This document shows positions 15,106 through 37,235 of a stretch of DNA of 64,000 nt, one piece after another (the stretch's first letter is position 1; the number at the start of each line of letters is the position of its first letter). The translations under genes and the position numbers were made by a program. The notes beneath the pieces were generated by a model. It did no database searches. It was not told the origin of the DNA and saw only the letters and a program-made list of their open reading frames with translations. This DNA comes from Deltaproteobacteria bacterium (GTDB taxonomy: Bacteria; Myxococcota; B64-G9): assembly GCA_016935365.1 (NCBI GenBank), contig JAFGRB010000178.1, positions 389-64,388 of the forward strand, written 5' to 3'.

Positions 15106-15166
15106 GCGAGTCTAGTAGAATACCGAATTTTCCGCAACTATGCTGCGGAAAAACCGACTTTTCCCG
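15106..15166. promoter_or_regulatory. Two tandem palindromes TTTTCC(C)GCA-N7-TGCGGAAAA upstream of the AAA+ ATPase gene
   Basis: 15108-15132 and 15139-15164; the second contains the perfect 8-bp-arm palindrome CCGCAGCAgTGCTGCGG; no flanking U-tract. Confidence 0.45.
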
Positions 15167-15242
15167 CAGCAGTGCTGCGGAAAATTGGGATTCCGGGATG
15201 GAACCGAAGCGCTGATAGTATTATAATACGCAAGGATGCCGG

Positions 15243-25900: not shown

Positions 25901-26224
25901 CAGCTCCGCCGGGAAGGCATGCTGCTGCTGCCCGAGTATCGCCTGGCCGCGCCCCGGCCCGTCGAGGACGGCAGCGAGCTCGTGGCCGGGCAGATGGACC
26001 TGCTGGCGCTCAGCGGCCGGGAGGCGTGGATCATCGACTTCAAGACCGACCAGGACCTGGGTCCGCACGCCCACGCCCACTACGAGCAGCAGCTCGAGCA
26101 GTACGCCTACATGCTGCGCCGCACCGGCCTGATCGGCAGCCGCGAGATCAAGCAGGCCCTGCTCTTCACCCAGACCGGGCGGGTGCACGTGCTAGGCGGG
26201 CAGCTCAGCCTCCCTTTCGAGTAG
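22898..26224 (+). CDS. addA: AddA/UvrD-family helicase-nuclease
   Basis: Walker A AGAGSGKT, FGTIHSF, helicase motifs, and C-terminal IIDFKTD RecB-like nuclease. Confidence 0.8.
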   Translation: MAERLGDQDARDRIVLEHGRNVVVKAGAGSGKTHTLITRLVELVAPSREGVDPIPLRRIAAISFTRRSAGDLKLQARRRLLMALETAREAPVRRELLRRAIGEMDGAFFGTIHSFALRILQSRPIESGLGPGRELLEDTADLAEETFEELLRSAQLERLSEVLDEELDPARVQEVEKTLELALDAGLPRRTAGTGYGRRFGLDALIAELIDKRDIELDPPLPRAPRLSDLRPEIRSILEEAARLRGASRAVALMQGFALELGQLDEGLQGGDLVIELQRLFEPLADLDKLYAQNPQDFPQDDHRRARGLAVALLDKPLQSGRFASRRLRSELLGPGHAYLACRLMRIAPVVRCLYDRVKRRRAVLDYTDVLLLLARALRDETGFRTEVQALFDHILLDECQDNDPLQVEIISFLAEQGARARHWREVRFRPGALTVVGDPKQSIYRFRRADIAIYEDFTRALEEQGALCEILTCNFRSRPELICEVFNKQGPVLLRRVDRPAGQAEFQDLTPAGNVQPAGDAVVHRIDFAAPAHIRRREARRFEAEAIAAYLDELLRGGLDVEIRDPDCPDEQRAPRPGDVVILCRSTFDLDLLSASLDRRGIAHLKRGGKTSMQDPALRALLLALRAVSDPDDGVAHAALLAPPFFPLSLADELAARSGEACEAHRAAIRLLEALRRRRHERPLLRTASLLMEQSQFARLVSVLPNGRQRLALIRQALALLQSEAARRGLDFDRATALGRCWVERPPRFDPAEPDTVDAVRIFTTHQSKGLEFPIVVLWDAQAGRPSGPRSASALELARDGSQWSLKIGWVHHDSSDGGLAELDGALDRLERDRLYYVATTRTRDLLAIPFLRSPGAGGSYHALLVHQIAAPGVVRIIDLTEIERAAPSMPLPELVPDEPIQQASFESQEAWTAALAESARPRMRPRAPSSRAGAEPDPAPPRYGPDFGTLVHRALELLLSGARERVEDAFEVAFAEQPAGPREEALADVRRAIAALDGLQLRREGMLLLPEYRLAAPRPVEDGSELVAGQMDLLALSGREAWIIDFKTDQDLGPHAHAHYEQQLEQYAYMLRRTGLIGSREIKQALLFTQTGRVHVLGGQLSLPFE

Positions 26225-26322
26225 CGTTGGCGTATTTGCGCGGCGCATCGCGACTCGGCTCTCCCCGCCGGCGTCGGCTCCTCGGGCCGATCCGCGATGC
26301 GGGGTTCGAGGTGCGGCGCGGC

Positions 26323-26646
26323 TCAGGGCAGGCCCGGGAAGGCGTCCACGTACTGGATCTTGATGTCGGGAAAGGCGTCCACGATCTGGACCTTGATGTC
26401 CGGGAAGGCGTCGACGATCTGCCACTTGCCGCACTTGTCCGGGAACGCGTTGACCTTCTTGACCTTGAGGTCCGGGAAGGCCTTGACCACCTGGATCTTG
26501 ATGTCCGGAAAGGCCTTGACGAACTTCACCTTGCCGTAGAGCTTCTTGCCCTTGAAATGGCAGTCCGGTCCCACCTTGCCGGCCAGGGCCGTCGAGCTCG
26601 AGAGCAGGACGGCGAGCCAGACGAGCGCCATGCGCAATCCCCGCAT
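26323..26646 (-). CDS. Secreted 107-aa protein built from ~6 decapeptide repeats (x-V-x-AFPDIK-I/V-Q)
   Basis: Signal peptide MRGLRMALVWLAVLLSSSTALA; encoded by 30-bp tandem DNA repeats. Confidence 0.6.
   Translation of the reverse strand: MRGLRMALVWLAVLLSSSTALAGKVGPDCHFKGKKLYGKVKFVKAFPDIKIQVVKAFPDLKVKKVNAFPDKCGKWQIVDAFPDIKVQIVDAFPDIKIQYVDAFPGLP
26330..26550. repeat. ~30-bp tandem repeat (x6-7), in-frame within the small secreted protein gene
   Basis: Repeated ggcgtccacgatctggaccttgatgtccgggaa-like units. Confidence 0.7.
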
Positions 26647-26687
26647 GCGATATCCTCACTCTGTCTTCGGCGTGTACGGATCGAGGC

Positions 26688-27179
26688 TCAGTTGAAGATC
26701 TTCTCCAGCTCCCGCTCGACCACCTTCTCCTTGACGTTGCGCGCGATGCTGATCTCCTTGATGAGGAGATTGCGCGCCGTATCGAGCATCTTGCGCTCGC
26801 CGAAGCTGAGATCCTTGTCGAACTTGAGCAGGCACAGGTCCCTGAGCACCTCGGCGATGTCGAAGATGGATCCGGTCTTGATCTTCTCCATGTACTCCCG
26901 GTAGCGTCGATTCCAGGTCTGGCTCTTGCCCGAGTTGCCGTTCTTCTGCTTGAGAATCTTGTAGACTTCCTTGACCTTGCTCTTCGGGATGACCTCCCGC
27001 AGGCCCACCGAGTCAACCTTGTCCGTCGGGATCATGATCTTCATGCCGTTATCGAGAATGCGGAGCACATAGACATGCTGCTTGAAGCCCATGATCTCCC
27101 GCTTCTCGATGCCCATCACCTCGCCCACTCCGTGAGCTGGGTACACAGCCTTGTCACCTACCTTGAAGTTGGACTCCAT
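26688..27179 (-). CDS. CarD/CdnL-family RNAP-binding transcription regulator
   Basis: FKVGDKAVYPAHGVGEV N-terminal Tudor-like domain; 163 aa. Confidence 0.85.
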   Translation of the reverse strand: MESNFKVGDKAVYPAHGVGEVMGIEKREIMGFKQHVYVLRILDNGMKIMIPTDKVDSVGLREVIPKSKVKEVYKILKQKNGNSGKSQTWNRRYREYMEKIKTGSIFDIAEVLRDLCLLKFDKDLSFGERKMLDTARNLLIKEISIARNVKEKVVERELEKIFN

Positions 27180-27525
27180 AGACGCTCCTTCTAAAAAAGG
27201 AAAGTCTAGACCAAGAAACTACCCACACCCCCAGGGGTCCAGGGAGGCTAGCATACATACCCGCTTCGGGTCAAGACAAATCCTCCCGGCCGCTCTGTTG
27301 CATACAAAACTGGCATGGATCTGGCTGTATTCCCGCCCGGAGCTCGCCTCGCTGCTCGGAAGCTGCGCGGCCAGGTCAGAGAGAGAAGAAAAAACGACGA
27401 CTTGCAGCCAGACCCGGGACCGCTCTGACAGCCTGCCGTCAGGAAAGCCGACAGGTCTGTCGACATCCATCCGCACAGGAGATACACTTGGCTGCCCGTT
27501 TTCCACGCCTCCCAGGAGGTCGACC

Positions 27526-29007
27526 ATGCTCGGATCGGGTAGATGGCCCGTGCTCGCGGCACTGGCGCTGCTCTGCATCGCGAGGCCCTGCACGGCCCGC
27601 GAGCTCACGCTCGACCAGGCCCGCGAACGGGCCCGGACGCACAACCTCGGCCTCCAGGCCGCCCGGGAGAGGCTTCACCAGGTCGGGCTGACGGTGGACA
27701 AGGCCTGGGTCATGGTCAAGCCCCAGCTCACCGCCACGGGCACTTACACCCACCACGGCACCGAGGCGGGCATCGAGTTCCCCGACATCACCACCATCCA
27801 GTACTCGCTGGATCCGGCCGAGTGCGACGGCGATCCCTTCTGCATCACCGGCTTCGAGCGCTATAACCGCTTCACTATCCAGAAGCAGGACAGCTTCGGC
27901 TTCTCGGCCGTGCTGAGTCAGCCCCTCTTTCTCGCCCGGGCCTACACGACGATCTCGAACGCCTACCACGCCCGCGACCTGGCGGAGCTCAACCACGAGA
28001 ACCTGGAGGACTTCCTGCTCCACAGCGTGGAGATGGCCTACTACGGTGCCCTGGGCGCGGAGAAGCTGCTGGCCATCGCGCGCAACTCGGCCGAGATCCG
28101 GCGCGAGCACCTCCGGGTGGCCCGCGCCAAGTTCGAGGTCGGCGATGCGCCCAAGATCACGGCGCTTCGGGCCGAGATCGACGTGAACCGCTGCGAGCAG
28201 GACGTCAAGCGGGCGGAGAACGCCCTCGAGCTATCCAAGGAGGCCCTGGGCCTGCTGACCGATCTGCCGGCGGAGGAGATCGACCTGGTGCCCCCGGAGC
28301 CAGCCCGCCGGCCGGCCCGCAGCATGCAGGCCTTCATCGACGAGGCGCTCGGCCATCGCCGCGACCTGCAGACGGCCCGCACCGAGCACGCCATGGCCGA
28401 GAAGCTCGAGCAGGACGCCTGGGCGCGCTTCCTGCCCAGCCTGGCCCTGACCGGCATGTTCCGCGTCTCGGACGTCAAGGGCTTCACCGACGAGTACTAC
28501 AGCTGGAACGTGGGGCTGGCGCTGTCCATCCCGCTCTACGACGGGGGCATGCGCTACGCGGCCCTCGAGGAGGCCCGCTCGAAGATCCGCCAGGCCGAGA
28601 TCGAGATCGAGGAGACCCGCCGCAAGATCGCAAGCGAGATCCGCCAGCTGTGGCTCAAGGTGGAGATGGCGGAAGCCAACCTGGAAAAGGCCCGCCGCTC
28701 GGTCGAGCTGGCCCGGGAGCAGGTGGAGCTGTCGCGCGTCTCGTTCGAGGCTGGCGCCGTGACCAACCTCGAGGTACTGGACGCCAACTCCATGCTCTTC
28801 GTGGCCGAGACCACGGTCGTCCAGGAGGAGCTCAACCTCCAGCTGGCCATCGTGCGCCTGAGCAAGTCGGTCACGATGTTCAATCCCGCAGGCAGCCTGG
28901 GGGCCGCGGGCGTGAGCGTCGAGCCGGGCCCGGCCGCGGCCGAGGCCTCCCTGCCCGCCTCCGGCATGTCCCTGCCCGCAGCCCTCTCCGGGCTGGGCGG
29001 GATGTGA
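27526..29007 (+). CDS. TolC-family outer membrane efflux protein
   Basis: Signal peptide and duplicated coiled-coil/beta repeats of the OEP family; GGAGG SD. Confidence 0.75.
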   Translation: MLGSGRWPVLAALALLCIARPCTARELTLDQARERARTHNLGLQAARERLHQVGLTVDKAWVMVKPQLTATGTYTHHGTEAGIEFPDITTIQYSLDPAECDGDPFCITGFERYNRFTIQKQDSFGFSAVLSQPLFLARAYTTISNAYHARDLAELNHENLEDFLLHSVEMAYYGALGAEKLLAIARNSAEIRREHLRVARAKFEVGDAPKITALRAEIDVNRCEQDVKRAENALELSKEALGLLTDLPAEEIDLVPPEPARRPARSMQAFIDEALGHRRDLQTARTEHAMAEKLEQDAWARFLPSLALTGMFRVSDVKGFTDEYYSWNVGLALSIPLYDGGMRYAALEEARSKIRQAEIEIEETRRKIASEIRQLWLKVEMAEANLEKARRSVELAREQVELSRVSFEAGAVTNLEVLDANSMLFVAETTVVQEELNLQLAIVRLSKSVTMFNPAGSLGAAGVSVEPGPAAAEASLPASGMSLPAALSGLGGM

Positions 29008-35861: not shown

Positions 35862-37235
35862 ATGAAAAGGTGTTTAATCGTCTGTATCCTGTCCGCTCTC
35901 GCGTGCGCCGCGGGCTGCAGCTCCTCATCGGCGCCCGAGTGCAGCGCAGCCTCGGACTGCACCGGCGACCCCGGCGAGGGCTGCGTCTGGCTATGCGTCG
36001 ATCACGCCTGCGAGAAGAGCTGCGATACGCACGAGTGCGAGGAAGCCGCGGACTGCACCGGCGATCCCGGGCAGGGCTGCGTCTGGCTGTGCGTCGATCA
36101 GCACTGCCAGAGGAGCTGCGGCGAGCCGGAGTGCGAGGTAGCTTCTGACTGCACCGGCGATCCAGGCGAGAGCTGCGTCTGGCTGTGCGTCGATCAGCAC
36201 TGCCAGGCGAGCTGCGGCGAGCCGGAGTGCGAGGTGGCCGAGGACTGCCAGGACGAGCCCTGGCTCGAGGACTGCATCGGTCACTTCGAGTGCATCGACG
36301 GGGAGTGCTTCGCGGTCTGCGACGACGAGTGCAGCGTGCCCGAGGACTGCGCGGGCCTCGAGTTCCCGCTGGACTGCCAGGGGCACTGGATCTGCGATCA
36401 GAACCACTGCAAGCCGGTCTGCGACCAGGGCTGTGAGGGCCCTTCGGACTGCGAGGGCCTGCCGTGGCCGGTGGGCTGCCGCGGGCACTGGGAGTGCAAC
36501 GCGGACCACGTCTGCGTGCCGGTCTGCGATCCGAGCTGCACCCACCCGCGCGACTGCTGGGGCCTGGAGTTCCCGATCGACTGCATCGGCTTCTGGGACT
36601 GCGTGGACGGTTACTGCCAGCCGTACTGCGGCGAGTGCGGCGGAGAGGGCGAGACGATCGCGCCCGGCGATCCGATCTGCTGCCCGGGGCTGGTATCCGG
36701 CATGATCGCCGAGATCGACACCACGGGCGACTGTACGCCGATACCCGGGGGCATGGTGTGCATCGACTGCCCGAGCGGCGCGTGCGGGCCCGGCGAGAAC
36801 TTCTGCAACTGCCCCGACGACTGCCCCTTCGAGCCGAACTGCGTGCCCGAGGGCGAGTGGCAATACGGGGACGGGCCGCTTTGCTGCGCGGGGCTGATCT
36901 CGAGGCCCTGGGGCGAGCCCGAGGACGACTGCACGACCAGCAACACGCTCTCGGTCTGTGTGCGCTGCCCGAACGGGGAGTGCGGCCTCGGCGAGAACGT
37001 CTGCACCTGCCCCGAGGACTGCTCGGCGACCGGCTGCACGCCCGAGGGAGAGTACACCAGCCCGGTCGAGCCGAACTGCTGCCCGGGCCTCGAGGCCATC
37101 GTGATCGCCGAGTACGAGCAGGGCGCCTGCAGCTACATCGACGGCGCGCTGGTCTGCGCCGCCTGCCCGAACGGGGAGTGCGGACTCGGCGAGAACTTCT
37201 GCAACTGCCCCGATGACTGCCCGGGCCACAACTGA
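35862..37235 (+). CDS. Cys-rich repeat lipoprotein (Myxococcus-type cysteine-rich repeats)
   Basis: Lipobox LACAAGC; 3x ~37-aa EC..A.DCTGDPG.GCVWLCVD..C..SCGEP and 3x CPNGECGLGENxCxCPxDC repeats. Confidence 0.7.
   Translation: MKRCLIVCILSALACAAGCSSSSAPECSAASDCTGDPGEGCVWLCVDHACEKSCDTHECEEAADCTGDPGQGCVWLCVDQHCQRSCGEPECEVASDCTGDPGESCVWLCVDQHCQASCGEPECEVAEDCQDEPWLEDCIGHFECIDGECFAVCDDECSVPEDCAGLEFPLDCQGHWICDQNHCKPVCDQGCEGPSDCEGLPWPVGCRGHWECNADHVCVPVCDPSCTHPRDCWGLEFPIDCIGFWDCVDGYCQPYCGECGGEGETIAPGDPICCPGLVSGMIAEIDTTGDCTPIPGGMVCIDCPSGACGPGENFCNCPDDCPFEPNCVPEGEWQYGDGPLCCAGLISRPWGEPEDDCTTSNTLSVCVRCPNGECGLGENVCTCPEDCSATGCTPEGEYTSPVEPNCCPGLEAIVIAEYEQGACSYIDGALVCAACPNGECGLGENFCNCPDDCPGHN

Follow-up and report, generated by a model that had tools for sequence, protein, structure and literature searches.

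The window analysed here is a stretch of 64,000 nucleotides from a deltaproteobacterial assembly (GCA_016935365.1, contig JAFGRB010000178.1, positions 389 to 64,388), and its minus strand carries at 26323-26646 a complete open reading frame (ORF), referred to below as the knot gene. The 107-amino-acid product (MRGLRMALVWLAVLLSSSTALAGKVGPDCHFKGKKLYGKVKFVKAFPDIKIQVVKAFPDLKVKKVNAFPDKCGKWQIVDAFPDIKVQIVDAFPDIKIQYVDAFPGLP) is very probably a typical exported member of the family PF19647, also named '7(1) septoil knot domain', and a homologue of the knotted protein Q9PR55 of Ureaplasma urealyticum. The gene itself was previously unannotated, and the family to which it is assigned is already recognised. 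A first-pass annotation, made from the sequence alone, had described a secreted protein built of tandem peptide repeats and had recognised no homologue. The gene and its ribosome-binding signal are as follows.

26323..26646, minus strand: complete ORF of 107 codons plus stop, probable precursor of the septoil knot family (from the ORF list, the GC content at third codon positions (GC3) and homology)
26653..26657, minus strand: GAGGA, Shine-Dalgarno-like, 6 nt 5' of the ATG, read from the sequence

Family identity and coding evidence

A phmmer search against the PDB matched residues 29-99 of the window protein to residues 18-87 of 8iwa_A (E=5.6e-12, 48.9 bits, about 40% identity). 8IWA and four further entries represent the 'Uncharacterized protein UU089.1' (Q9PR55). 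In a collection of 5.8 billion proteins, 1,407 homologous clusters at 90% identity were retrieved (E <= 0.001); the best 120 of these are 61-84% identical to the window protein and all bear the precomputed tag PF19647, and UniRef calls a member from Leptospira perolatii '7(1) septoil knot domain-contain...'. Representatives at 50% identity were searched exhaustively, and 1,281 of them matched, 818 at E <= 1e-10. With these clusters and a solved relative at hand, the first-pass remark that no homologue was recognised is superseded. In a 119-sequence alignment the window protein agrees with the family consensus at every invariant position, and it appears typical of Pfam PF19647 (DUF6150; '7(1) septoil knot domain-containing protein'), with no apparent difference. 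No functional information was found in the literature on DUF6150, P73136 (a Synechocystis member of the family), the SFPD motif or the 7_1 knot.

The ORF is real and coding. The 107-residue frame with a signal-peptide-like N-terminus and tandem peptide repeats that had been proposed for this position is genuine; it comprises a hydrophobic leader and six xFP(D/G) motifs. Lack of a GC3 bias had been named as a ground for rejecting the frame; the GC contents of its first, second and third codon positions are 0.58, 0.32 and 0.95 in a window of 69% GC, which strongly supports it. GGAGG-type sites are located at the position equivalent to the Shine-Dalgarno-like element in the six syntenic relatives of the gene, and a protein identical to the window copy is encoded on one other public contig (an independent Logan contig from a second sample). 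A scan for promoters and terminators around the gene found none on the gene's own strand. The antisense ORF 26297-26539 (plus strand) had been considered non-coding by composition, an argument that fails to discriminate: the two frames share third codon positions, so the GC3 of the antisense ORF is likewise 0.95. By sequence comparison, the strand of the gene is settled by homology and not by composition.

Antisense ORFs of this kind are encountered elsewhere in the family. Those of different homologues (L004, L022, L048, L053 and others) cluster together by BLAST and mimic a conserved neighbour gene. In one prophage locus (L085) the antisense ORF of the knot gene (122 aa) fits into a phage tail operon and has no PHROG match.

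Repeat structure and number of units

The repeats had been described as near-identical units of 30 bp, each encoding a decapeptide. The true period is 33 bp, or 11 amino acids. Base autocorrelation of the ORF reaches 0.68 at lag 33, compared with 0.35 +/- 0.04 (maximum 0.48) in 2,000 codon shuffles, and is only 0.24, under background, at lag 30; Tandem Repeats Finder (TRF) reports two period-33 arrays with scores of 121 and 112. Parsed in register, the ORF contains four 33-bp units, one 39-bp unit and one truncated 24-bp unit:

26488..26520, minus strand: unit 1, VKAFPDIKIQV, 33 bp
26455..26487, minus strand: unit 2, VKAFPDLKVKK, 33 bp; Leu at position 7 is family-specific to this unit
26416..26454, minus strand: unit 3, VNAFPDKCGKWQI, 39 bp; carries the two-residue insert and the CGKW loop (KCGKW insert)
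26383..26415, minus strand: unit 4, VDAFPDIKVQI, 33 bp
26350..26382, minus strand: unit 5, VDAFPDIKIQY, 33 bp; the aromatic residue at position 11 is family-specific to this unit
26326..26349, minus strand: truncated unit 6, VDAFPGLP, 24 bp; fixed C-terminal end, past the end of the Q9PR55 alignment

The 11-residue consensus is V-x-[A/S]-F-P-D-hydrophobic-K-[V/I]-Q-x, and the five AFPD motifs and the terminal AFPG are spaced by 11 residues (13 at unit 3). The units are far from near-identical, with pairwise DNA identities of 55-82%. Each has diagnostic features that are held across phyla, such as Leu7 in unit 2 (86%), CGxW in unit 3 and Tyr or Phe at position 11 in unit 5; in unit 6 the conservation of the Gly is 100% and that of the Pro 80%. 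The arrangement of the units is equally fixed. In 209 of 211 relatives the two Cys residues, Cys29 and Cys72 in the window protein, have a spacing of 43; in 210 of them the terminal Gly follows the second Cys at a distance of 33 residues, and in 185 the chain ends exactly two residues past this Gly. Variants with a spacing altered by +/-11 residues are absent among the 211, and no relative with more than six FP[D/G] units was found. Because the unit-specific residues and the spacing are fixed across phyla, the units, as judged from these alignments, are old and individually constrained parts of one fold and not a slippage-prone array, and the copy-number variation that had been suggested for them is not borne out.

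The residue before Phe tends to be uniform within a protein: 65 of 168 proteins have AAAAAA and 37 have SSSSSS, and the pair identity is 0.80 against 0.43 after shuffling. Gene conversion is not claimed as the cause of this common A/S homogeneity, for which genomic GC content is the simplest explanation. Joint changes of all six units also occur, if rarely, as SYPD x6 in P0052, FFPD x6 in P0183 and N/HFPD in P0030, and these suggest symmetric selection or conversion between units.

Fold and knot topology

The mature domain of 85 residues was modelled with AlphaFold2 from the 119-sequence alignment (mean predicted local distance difference test score (pLDDT) 94.4, predicted template modelling score 0.80). 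The model has six strands, each repeat unit supplying one beta-strand and one xFPD turn, and its N-terminal segment is ordered (pLDDT 85-95). A Foldseek search of the PDB with this model returned solely Q9PR55 entries (8iwa/8iwb/8jrm), with a probability of 1.0 and template modelling (TM) scores of 0.55-0.68. On this model, the six-stranded fold of the window protein is that of Q9PR55, and the assignment is firm.

The knot of Q9PR55 was predicted by AlphaFold to be of type 7_1 (Brems et al. 2022, PMC9278004), and crystallography and NMR have confirmed this topology (Hsu et al. 2023, PMC10840475); among known protein knots it is both the smallest and the most complex. A conserved SFPD motif is found in each inter-strand loop of Q9PR55, residues 1-15 are disordered, and the protein strongly resists urea and ClpXP (PMC10840475). 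Its homologue P73136 from Synechocystis, of 112 aa, has an AlphaFold-predicted 5_1 knot with one winding fewer (PMC9278004); it belongs to the same family and is likened by length, not by sequence, to the exported subfamily, whose members have 105-120 aa.

The window protein resembles Q9PR55 (8IWA, 8IWB, 8IWC, 8JRM, 8W68) in sequence over the knotted core, residues 27-83 of Q9PR55, the whole of which is spanned by the alignment, and in its xFPD turns and six strands. It differs in possessing a leader, a Cys pair and an ordered N-terminal segment; Q9PR55 has Ala and Thr at the positions of the two Cys residues, and SSSFCEETIK in place of the CGKW loop of unit 3. The turns read AFPD rather than SFPD, and a C-terminal AFPG-x-P unit is added.

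The first-pass annotation had suggested a beta-roll or solenoid-like protein. Beta-solenoid and beta-roll proteins, such as the RTX nonapeptide and pentapeptide-repeat proteins, share with the window protein short repeats of one strand and one turn each, and solenoid-like was a fair first approximation to the modelled units. The beta-roll did not stand. An RTX-type beta-roll or open solenoid was considered and rejected, since the window protein contains no RTX-type GGxGxD motif and the only fold match in the PDB is the knotted Q9PR55.

Predicted export and the cysteine pair

The following features concern export and the Cys pair of the window protein.

26581..26646, minus strand: predicted Sec/signal peptidase I signal peptide, residues 1-22, MRGLRMALVWLAVLLSSSTALA, with putative cleavage at ALA|GK
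26326..26580, minus strand: mature 85-aa knot domain, pI 9.5, with 16 Lys, 9 Asp and 8 Phe
26560..26562, minus strand: codon of Cys29, first Cys of the putative disulfide, just N-terminal of the first strand
26431..26433, minus strand: codon of Cys72, second Cys of the putative disulfide, in the CGKW loop of unit 3

The leader has an n-region with R2 and R5, a hydrophobic core ALVWLAVLL and a c-region SSSTALA with Ala at -3 and -1, and inspection of its sequence revealed neither a twin-arginine motif nor a lipobox Cys. The window protein would thus be exported by Sec and cleaved after Ala22. A hydrophobic stretch (Kyte-Doolittle >1.8) precedes the domain in 227 of 263 relatives. Two homologues of Burkholderiales type (P0040 and P0090) have a lipobox-like LALGC in their leaders, and in some lineages the knot domain may take the form of a lipoprotein.

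Cys29 and Cys72 are invariant in the 119-sequence alignment, as are the C, G and W of CGKW. Over 272 domain instances, both Cys residues are present in 248 and neither in 19, the first alone in none, and the first position is unaligned in five. As the two residues are conserved or lost jointly in an exported protein, a Cys29-Cys72 disulfide is inferred. The structural paper on Q9PR55 (PMC10840475) does not mention a signal peptide, cysteine, disulfide or periplasm.

Distribution and genomic context

Lineages and neighbouring genes were surveyed over the 80 best genome loci, with lineages counted by hand. These loci are distributed amongst Myxococcota, Leptospira, Bacteroidota, Beta-, Alpha- and Gammaproteobacteria, Campylobacter, Ignavibacteria and Negativicutes, all of them diderm; three plasmid records also carry relatives. 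By its 69% GC and by the neighbours of the knot gene, the window looks myxobacterial: a CarD/CdnL gene lies 41 bp upstream on the same strand as the knot gene, accompanied by a divergent gene for a TolC-like protein (OEP) and a convergent gene for a UvrD plus PD-(D/E)XK helicase-nuclease. The tolC / cdnL / knot order (26688-29007 in the window) recurs in six metagenome-assembled genomes (MAGs) of Myxococcota (L002, L003, L005, L008, L016 and L037), whose CdnL proteins are 83-89% identical. The gap between cdnL and the knot gene is 32-180 bp in the six loci and contains a terminator-like hairpin in L002; co-transcription with cdnL is therefore not general.

All-against-all clustering over the 80 loci found no conserved neighbour family in more than eight of them; response regulators are the most widely shared (8/80 loci) and are non-specific neighbours. 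A cluster that seemed larger was discarded, as it is made up of antisense ORFs of the knot gene itself. On inspection, the immediate neighbours are heterogeneous housekeeping genes. Since no neighbour family is shared beyond 8 of the 80 loci, the knot protein seems to act without any dedicated partner.

Larger secreted proteins (P0135, P0161, P0178, P0183 and P0231) also have the knot domain, as a module at their very C-terminus; the parts that precede it are Tudor/Agenet-like, PKD-like or unknown. Four proteins (P0121, P0125, P0131 and P0138) contain two knot domains in tandem and could form composite knots. N-terminal extensions and fusions are common in the family; C-terminal ones are almost absent.

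Phage copies

The window protein has a full-length match to phrog_6462 (unknown function; E=1e-33), and relatives are encoded in 39 IMG/VR loci, with leaders in all but two of them (translated ORFs were read by eye). Copies within prophages include the following, besides others among L082-L120.

L121, 6941-7255: prophage copy of the knot gene
L085, 3492-3806: prophage copy of the knot gene
L119, 7902-8228: prophage copy of the knot gene

The viral copies occupy three kinds of site. In prophages and phage-like plasmids of Leptospira, genes for tape measure, DUF6046/hub, tail protein X and hub are followed by two unknown genes, the knot gene and baseplate J, all on a single strand. In another module, of myovirus type, two baseplate-hub genes (phrog_5233 and phrog_4930) enclose the knot gene, which is on the opposite strand, and genes for sheath, tube and tape measure are adjacent. 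Lambdoid-type loci have Cys-less variants, again on the opposite strand, with endolysin/Rz-spanin genes to one side and minor-tail/terminase/portal genes to the other. This position, between the Rz spanin and terminase genes, is of the kind that bor occupies in lambda, and Bor of lambda and Sp of T4 are envelope proteins encoded by morons. The likeness of the knot family to these two is one of placement, as small exported proteins encoded on the opposite strand in late or lysis regions; there is no relation in sequence or fold. Because their products are exported, their placement is mostly on the strand opposite to the structural genes and their insertion sites differ, the prophage copies have, by analogy, the pattern of morons rather than of virion parts.

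The phrog_6462 prophage copies share with the window protein the leader, the Cys pair and the CGxW loop. They differ in location, as the window copy is chromosomal and not part of a prophage; that it is itself a prophage moron was considered and rejected in view of its neighbours (CarD/CdnL, the OEP/TolC-like protein and UvrD + PD-(D/E)XK) and of the synteny in the six MAGs. Among the PADLOC defence models, no family matched the window protein at E <= 0.1.

Alternative explanations

Several points weigh against the assignment of the window protein to the exported septoil knot family. Scans of the protein against Pfam-A and NCBIfam gave noise and no family, and its placement in PF19647 was made through the precomputed tags of close relatives. 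The negative Pfam scan is no bar to membership, because P0001, P0095 and P0101 are not reported as PF19647 by the same scan either, despite their precomputed PF19647.5 tag. The TM-scores of the model to 8IWA are moderate, and a family pair that is 48% identical is predicted to differ in its knot, 5_1 versus 7_1 (PMC9278004). The signal peptide was judged solely from inspection and hydropathy, a homologue on a viral contig (L092) retains the second Cys only, and no relatives were found in isolate phage genomes (INPHARED) or among BFVD structures.

The likeliest of the alternatives concerns the knot type. It is possible, if somewhat unlikely, that family and fold are as described and that the whole chain forms a 5_1 (cinquefoil) instead of a 7_1 knot: P73136, near in length to the exported subfamily, is predicted to be 5_1, Q9PR55 having one winding more, and the window protein departs from Q9PR55 at both ends, by its ordered, Cys-bearing N-terminal segment and its extra C-terminal unit. 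Against a 5_1 knot, the alignment covers the entire knotted core of Q9PR55, all six strands are present in the model, and the additional C-terminal unit makes the tail longer, not shorter. An uncleaved hydrophobic segment is a good deal less probable. It would act as a signal-anchor, or in some lineages as a lipoprotein signal, and leave the knot domain tethered to the membrane, and the heuristic nature of the signal peptide call, the lipobox-like LALGC of P0040 and P0090 and the use of the domain as a C-terminal end module on larger proteins would all agree with it. The window protein, however, has a canonical A-x-A site (ALA|G) after a hydrophobic core of 10 residues and no Cys at +1.

A phage-related role, as a baseplate accessory or in superinfection exclusion, with the window copy as a prophage remnant, is quite unlikely. 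The match to phrog_6462, the 39 IMG/VR loci and the location of the gene between baseplate genes on the same strand in Leptospira prophage-plasmids, and between two baseplate-hub genes or between Rz spanin and terminase genes in other prophages, speak in its favour. There are nevertheless no phage genes around the window copy, whose cdnL-knot-tolC arrangement is found in six Myxococcota MAGs; the phage copies have signal peptides and lie mostly on the strand opposite to the structural genes; and isolate phages, BFVD and PADLOC yielded no match. That the gene is a variable-number tandem repeat or contingency locus, in which slippage or recombination between repeats alters the unit number and the length of the secreted protein, is very improbable: a 33-bp tandem periodicity is present, but the units have diverged to 55-82% identity, relatives never exceed six units or vary in spacing by 11 residues, the diagnostic residues of each unit are kept across phyla, and the protein is unchanged in a second sample. 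Hardly any weight can be given to a spurious ORF, by which the region would be non-coding repeat DNA or the coding frame would be the antisense 26297-26539 or a long ORF overlapping the gene, at 26026-26904 (plus strand) or 26192-27016 (minus strand). High-GC DNA does yield many long open frames, and the GC3 of the antisense frame equals that of the gene. Homologues in more than 1,200 clusters across phyla, in low- as well as high-GC genomes, keep the leader, the Cys pair and the motifs; one homologue has a solved structure; a Shine-Dalgarno site precedes the knot gene; and the antisense ORFs of relatives differ in length and have no PHROG match.

Other features of the window

Two further repeat-containing loci were observed in the window.

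35862-37235, plus strand: ORF of 457 aa, in which a leader resembling that of a lipoprotein (MKRCLIVCILSALACAAGC) precedes many Cys-rich repeats; TRF reports a 96-bp x 3.3 tandem repeat at 35933-36248 inside it
15122-15184: 32-bp x 2 tandem repeat (ACCGAATTTTCCCGCAACAATGCTGCGGAAAA), unusually AT-rich for a window of 69% GC, holding an internal inverted repeat (TTTTCCGCAGC / GCTGCGGAAAA)

Proposed mechanism and significance

For an exported member of the septoil knot family, the following course may be proposed. The precursor would be exported by Sec and cut after Ala22, and in the periplasm a Cys29-Cys72 disulfide would staple the N-terminal segment to unit 3 at its CGKW loop, closing a loop of 44 residues. 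The C-terminal units would wind and thread into a torus-type knot, 7_1 as in Q9PR55 or 5_1 as predicted for P73136. The free C-terminus would be the threading end, as is suggested by a short and near-invariant C-terminal tail in contrast to freely varying N-terminal extensions and fusions. The resulting mini-domain would be a very stable, basic, Lys-rich product resistant to unfolding and to proteases and, by homology with Q9PR55, would expose a ring of outward-pointing Phe residues.

As to function, the role that seems most likely, and it can be put forward only tentatively, is that of a stand-alone envelope protein which binds or shields an envelope component; it is preferred because the family lacks partners, has been captured by prophages and serves as a terminal module. 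A fuller proposal is more speculative still. According to it, the family is mostly exported by Sec, in contrast to the solved Ureaplasma protein, which is cytoplasmic; its knot of five or seven crossings is tied after translocation without ATP and locked by the conserved disulfide, and its members, acting alone, protect the envelope, for example against a lytic enzyme, a protease or a phage. If this proves true, the C-terminal half is threaded through a 44-residue loop that the disulfide closes, making a covalently cinched hybrid of knot and lasso that is experimentally undescribed, and envelope protection would explain why unrelated prophages captured the gene as a moron at three different sites.

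For the genome, the knot gene is an unexceptional representative of an already recognised family. Of the protein knots confirmed to date, the most complex belongs to the septoil knot family, and the typical member of the family, like the window gene, has a predicted signal peptide and two Cys residues that strictly co-vary. This raises the questions of how a knot of five or seven crossings is tied after Sec translocation, whether the disulfide forms before or after threading, and whether the near-invariant C-terminus marks the end that threads. The absent partner gene and the repeated capture by prophages provide the first contextual hints on the function of the family.

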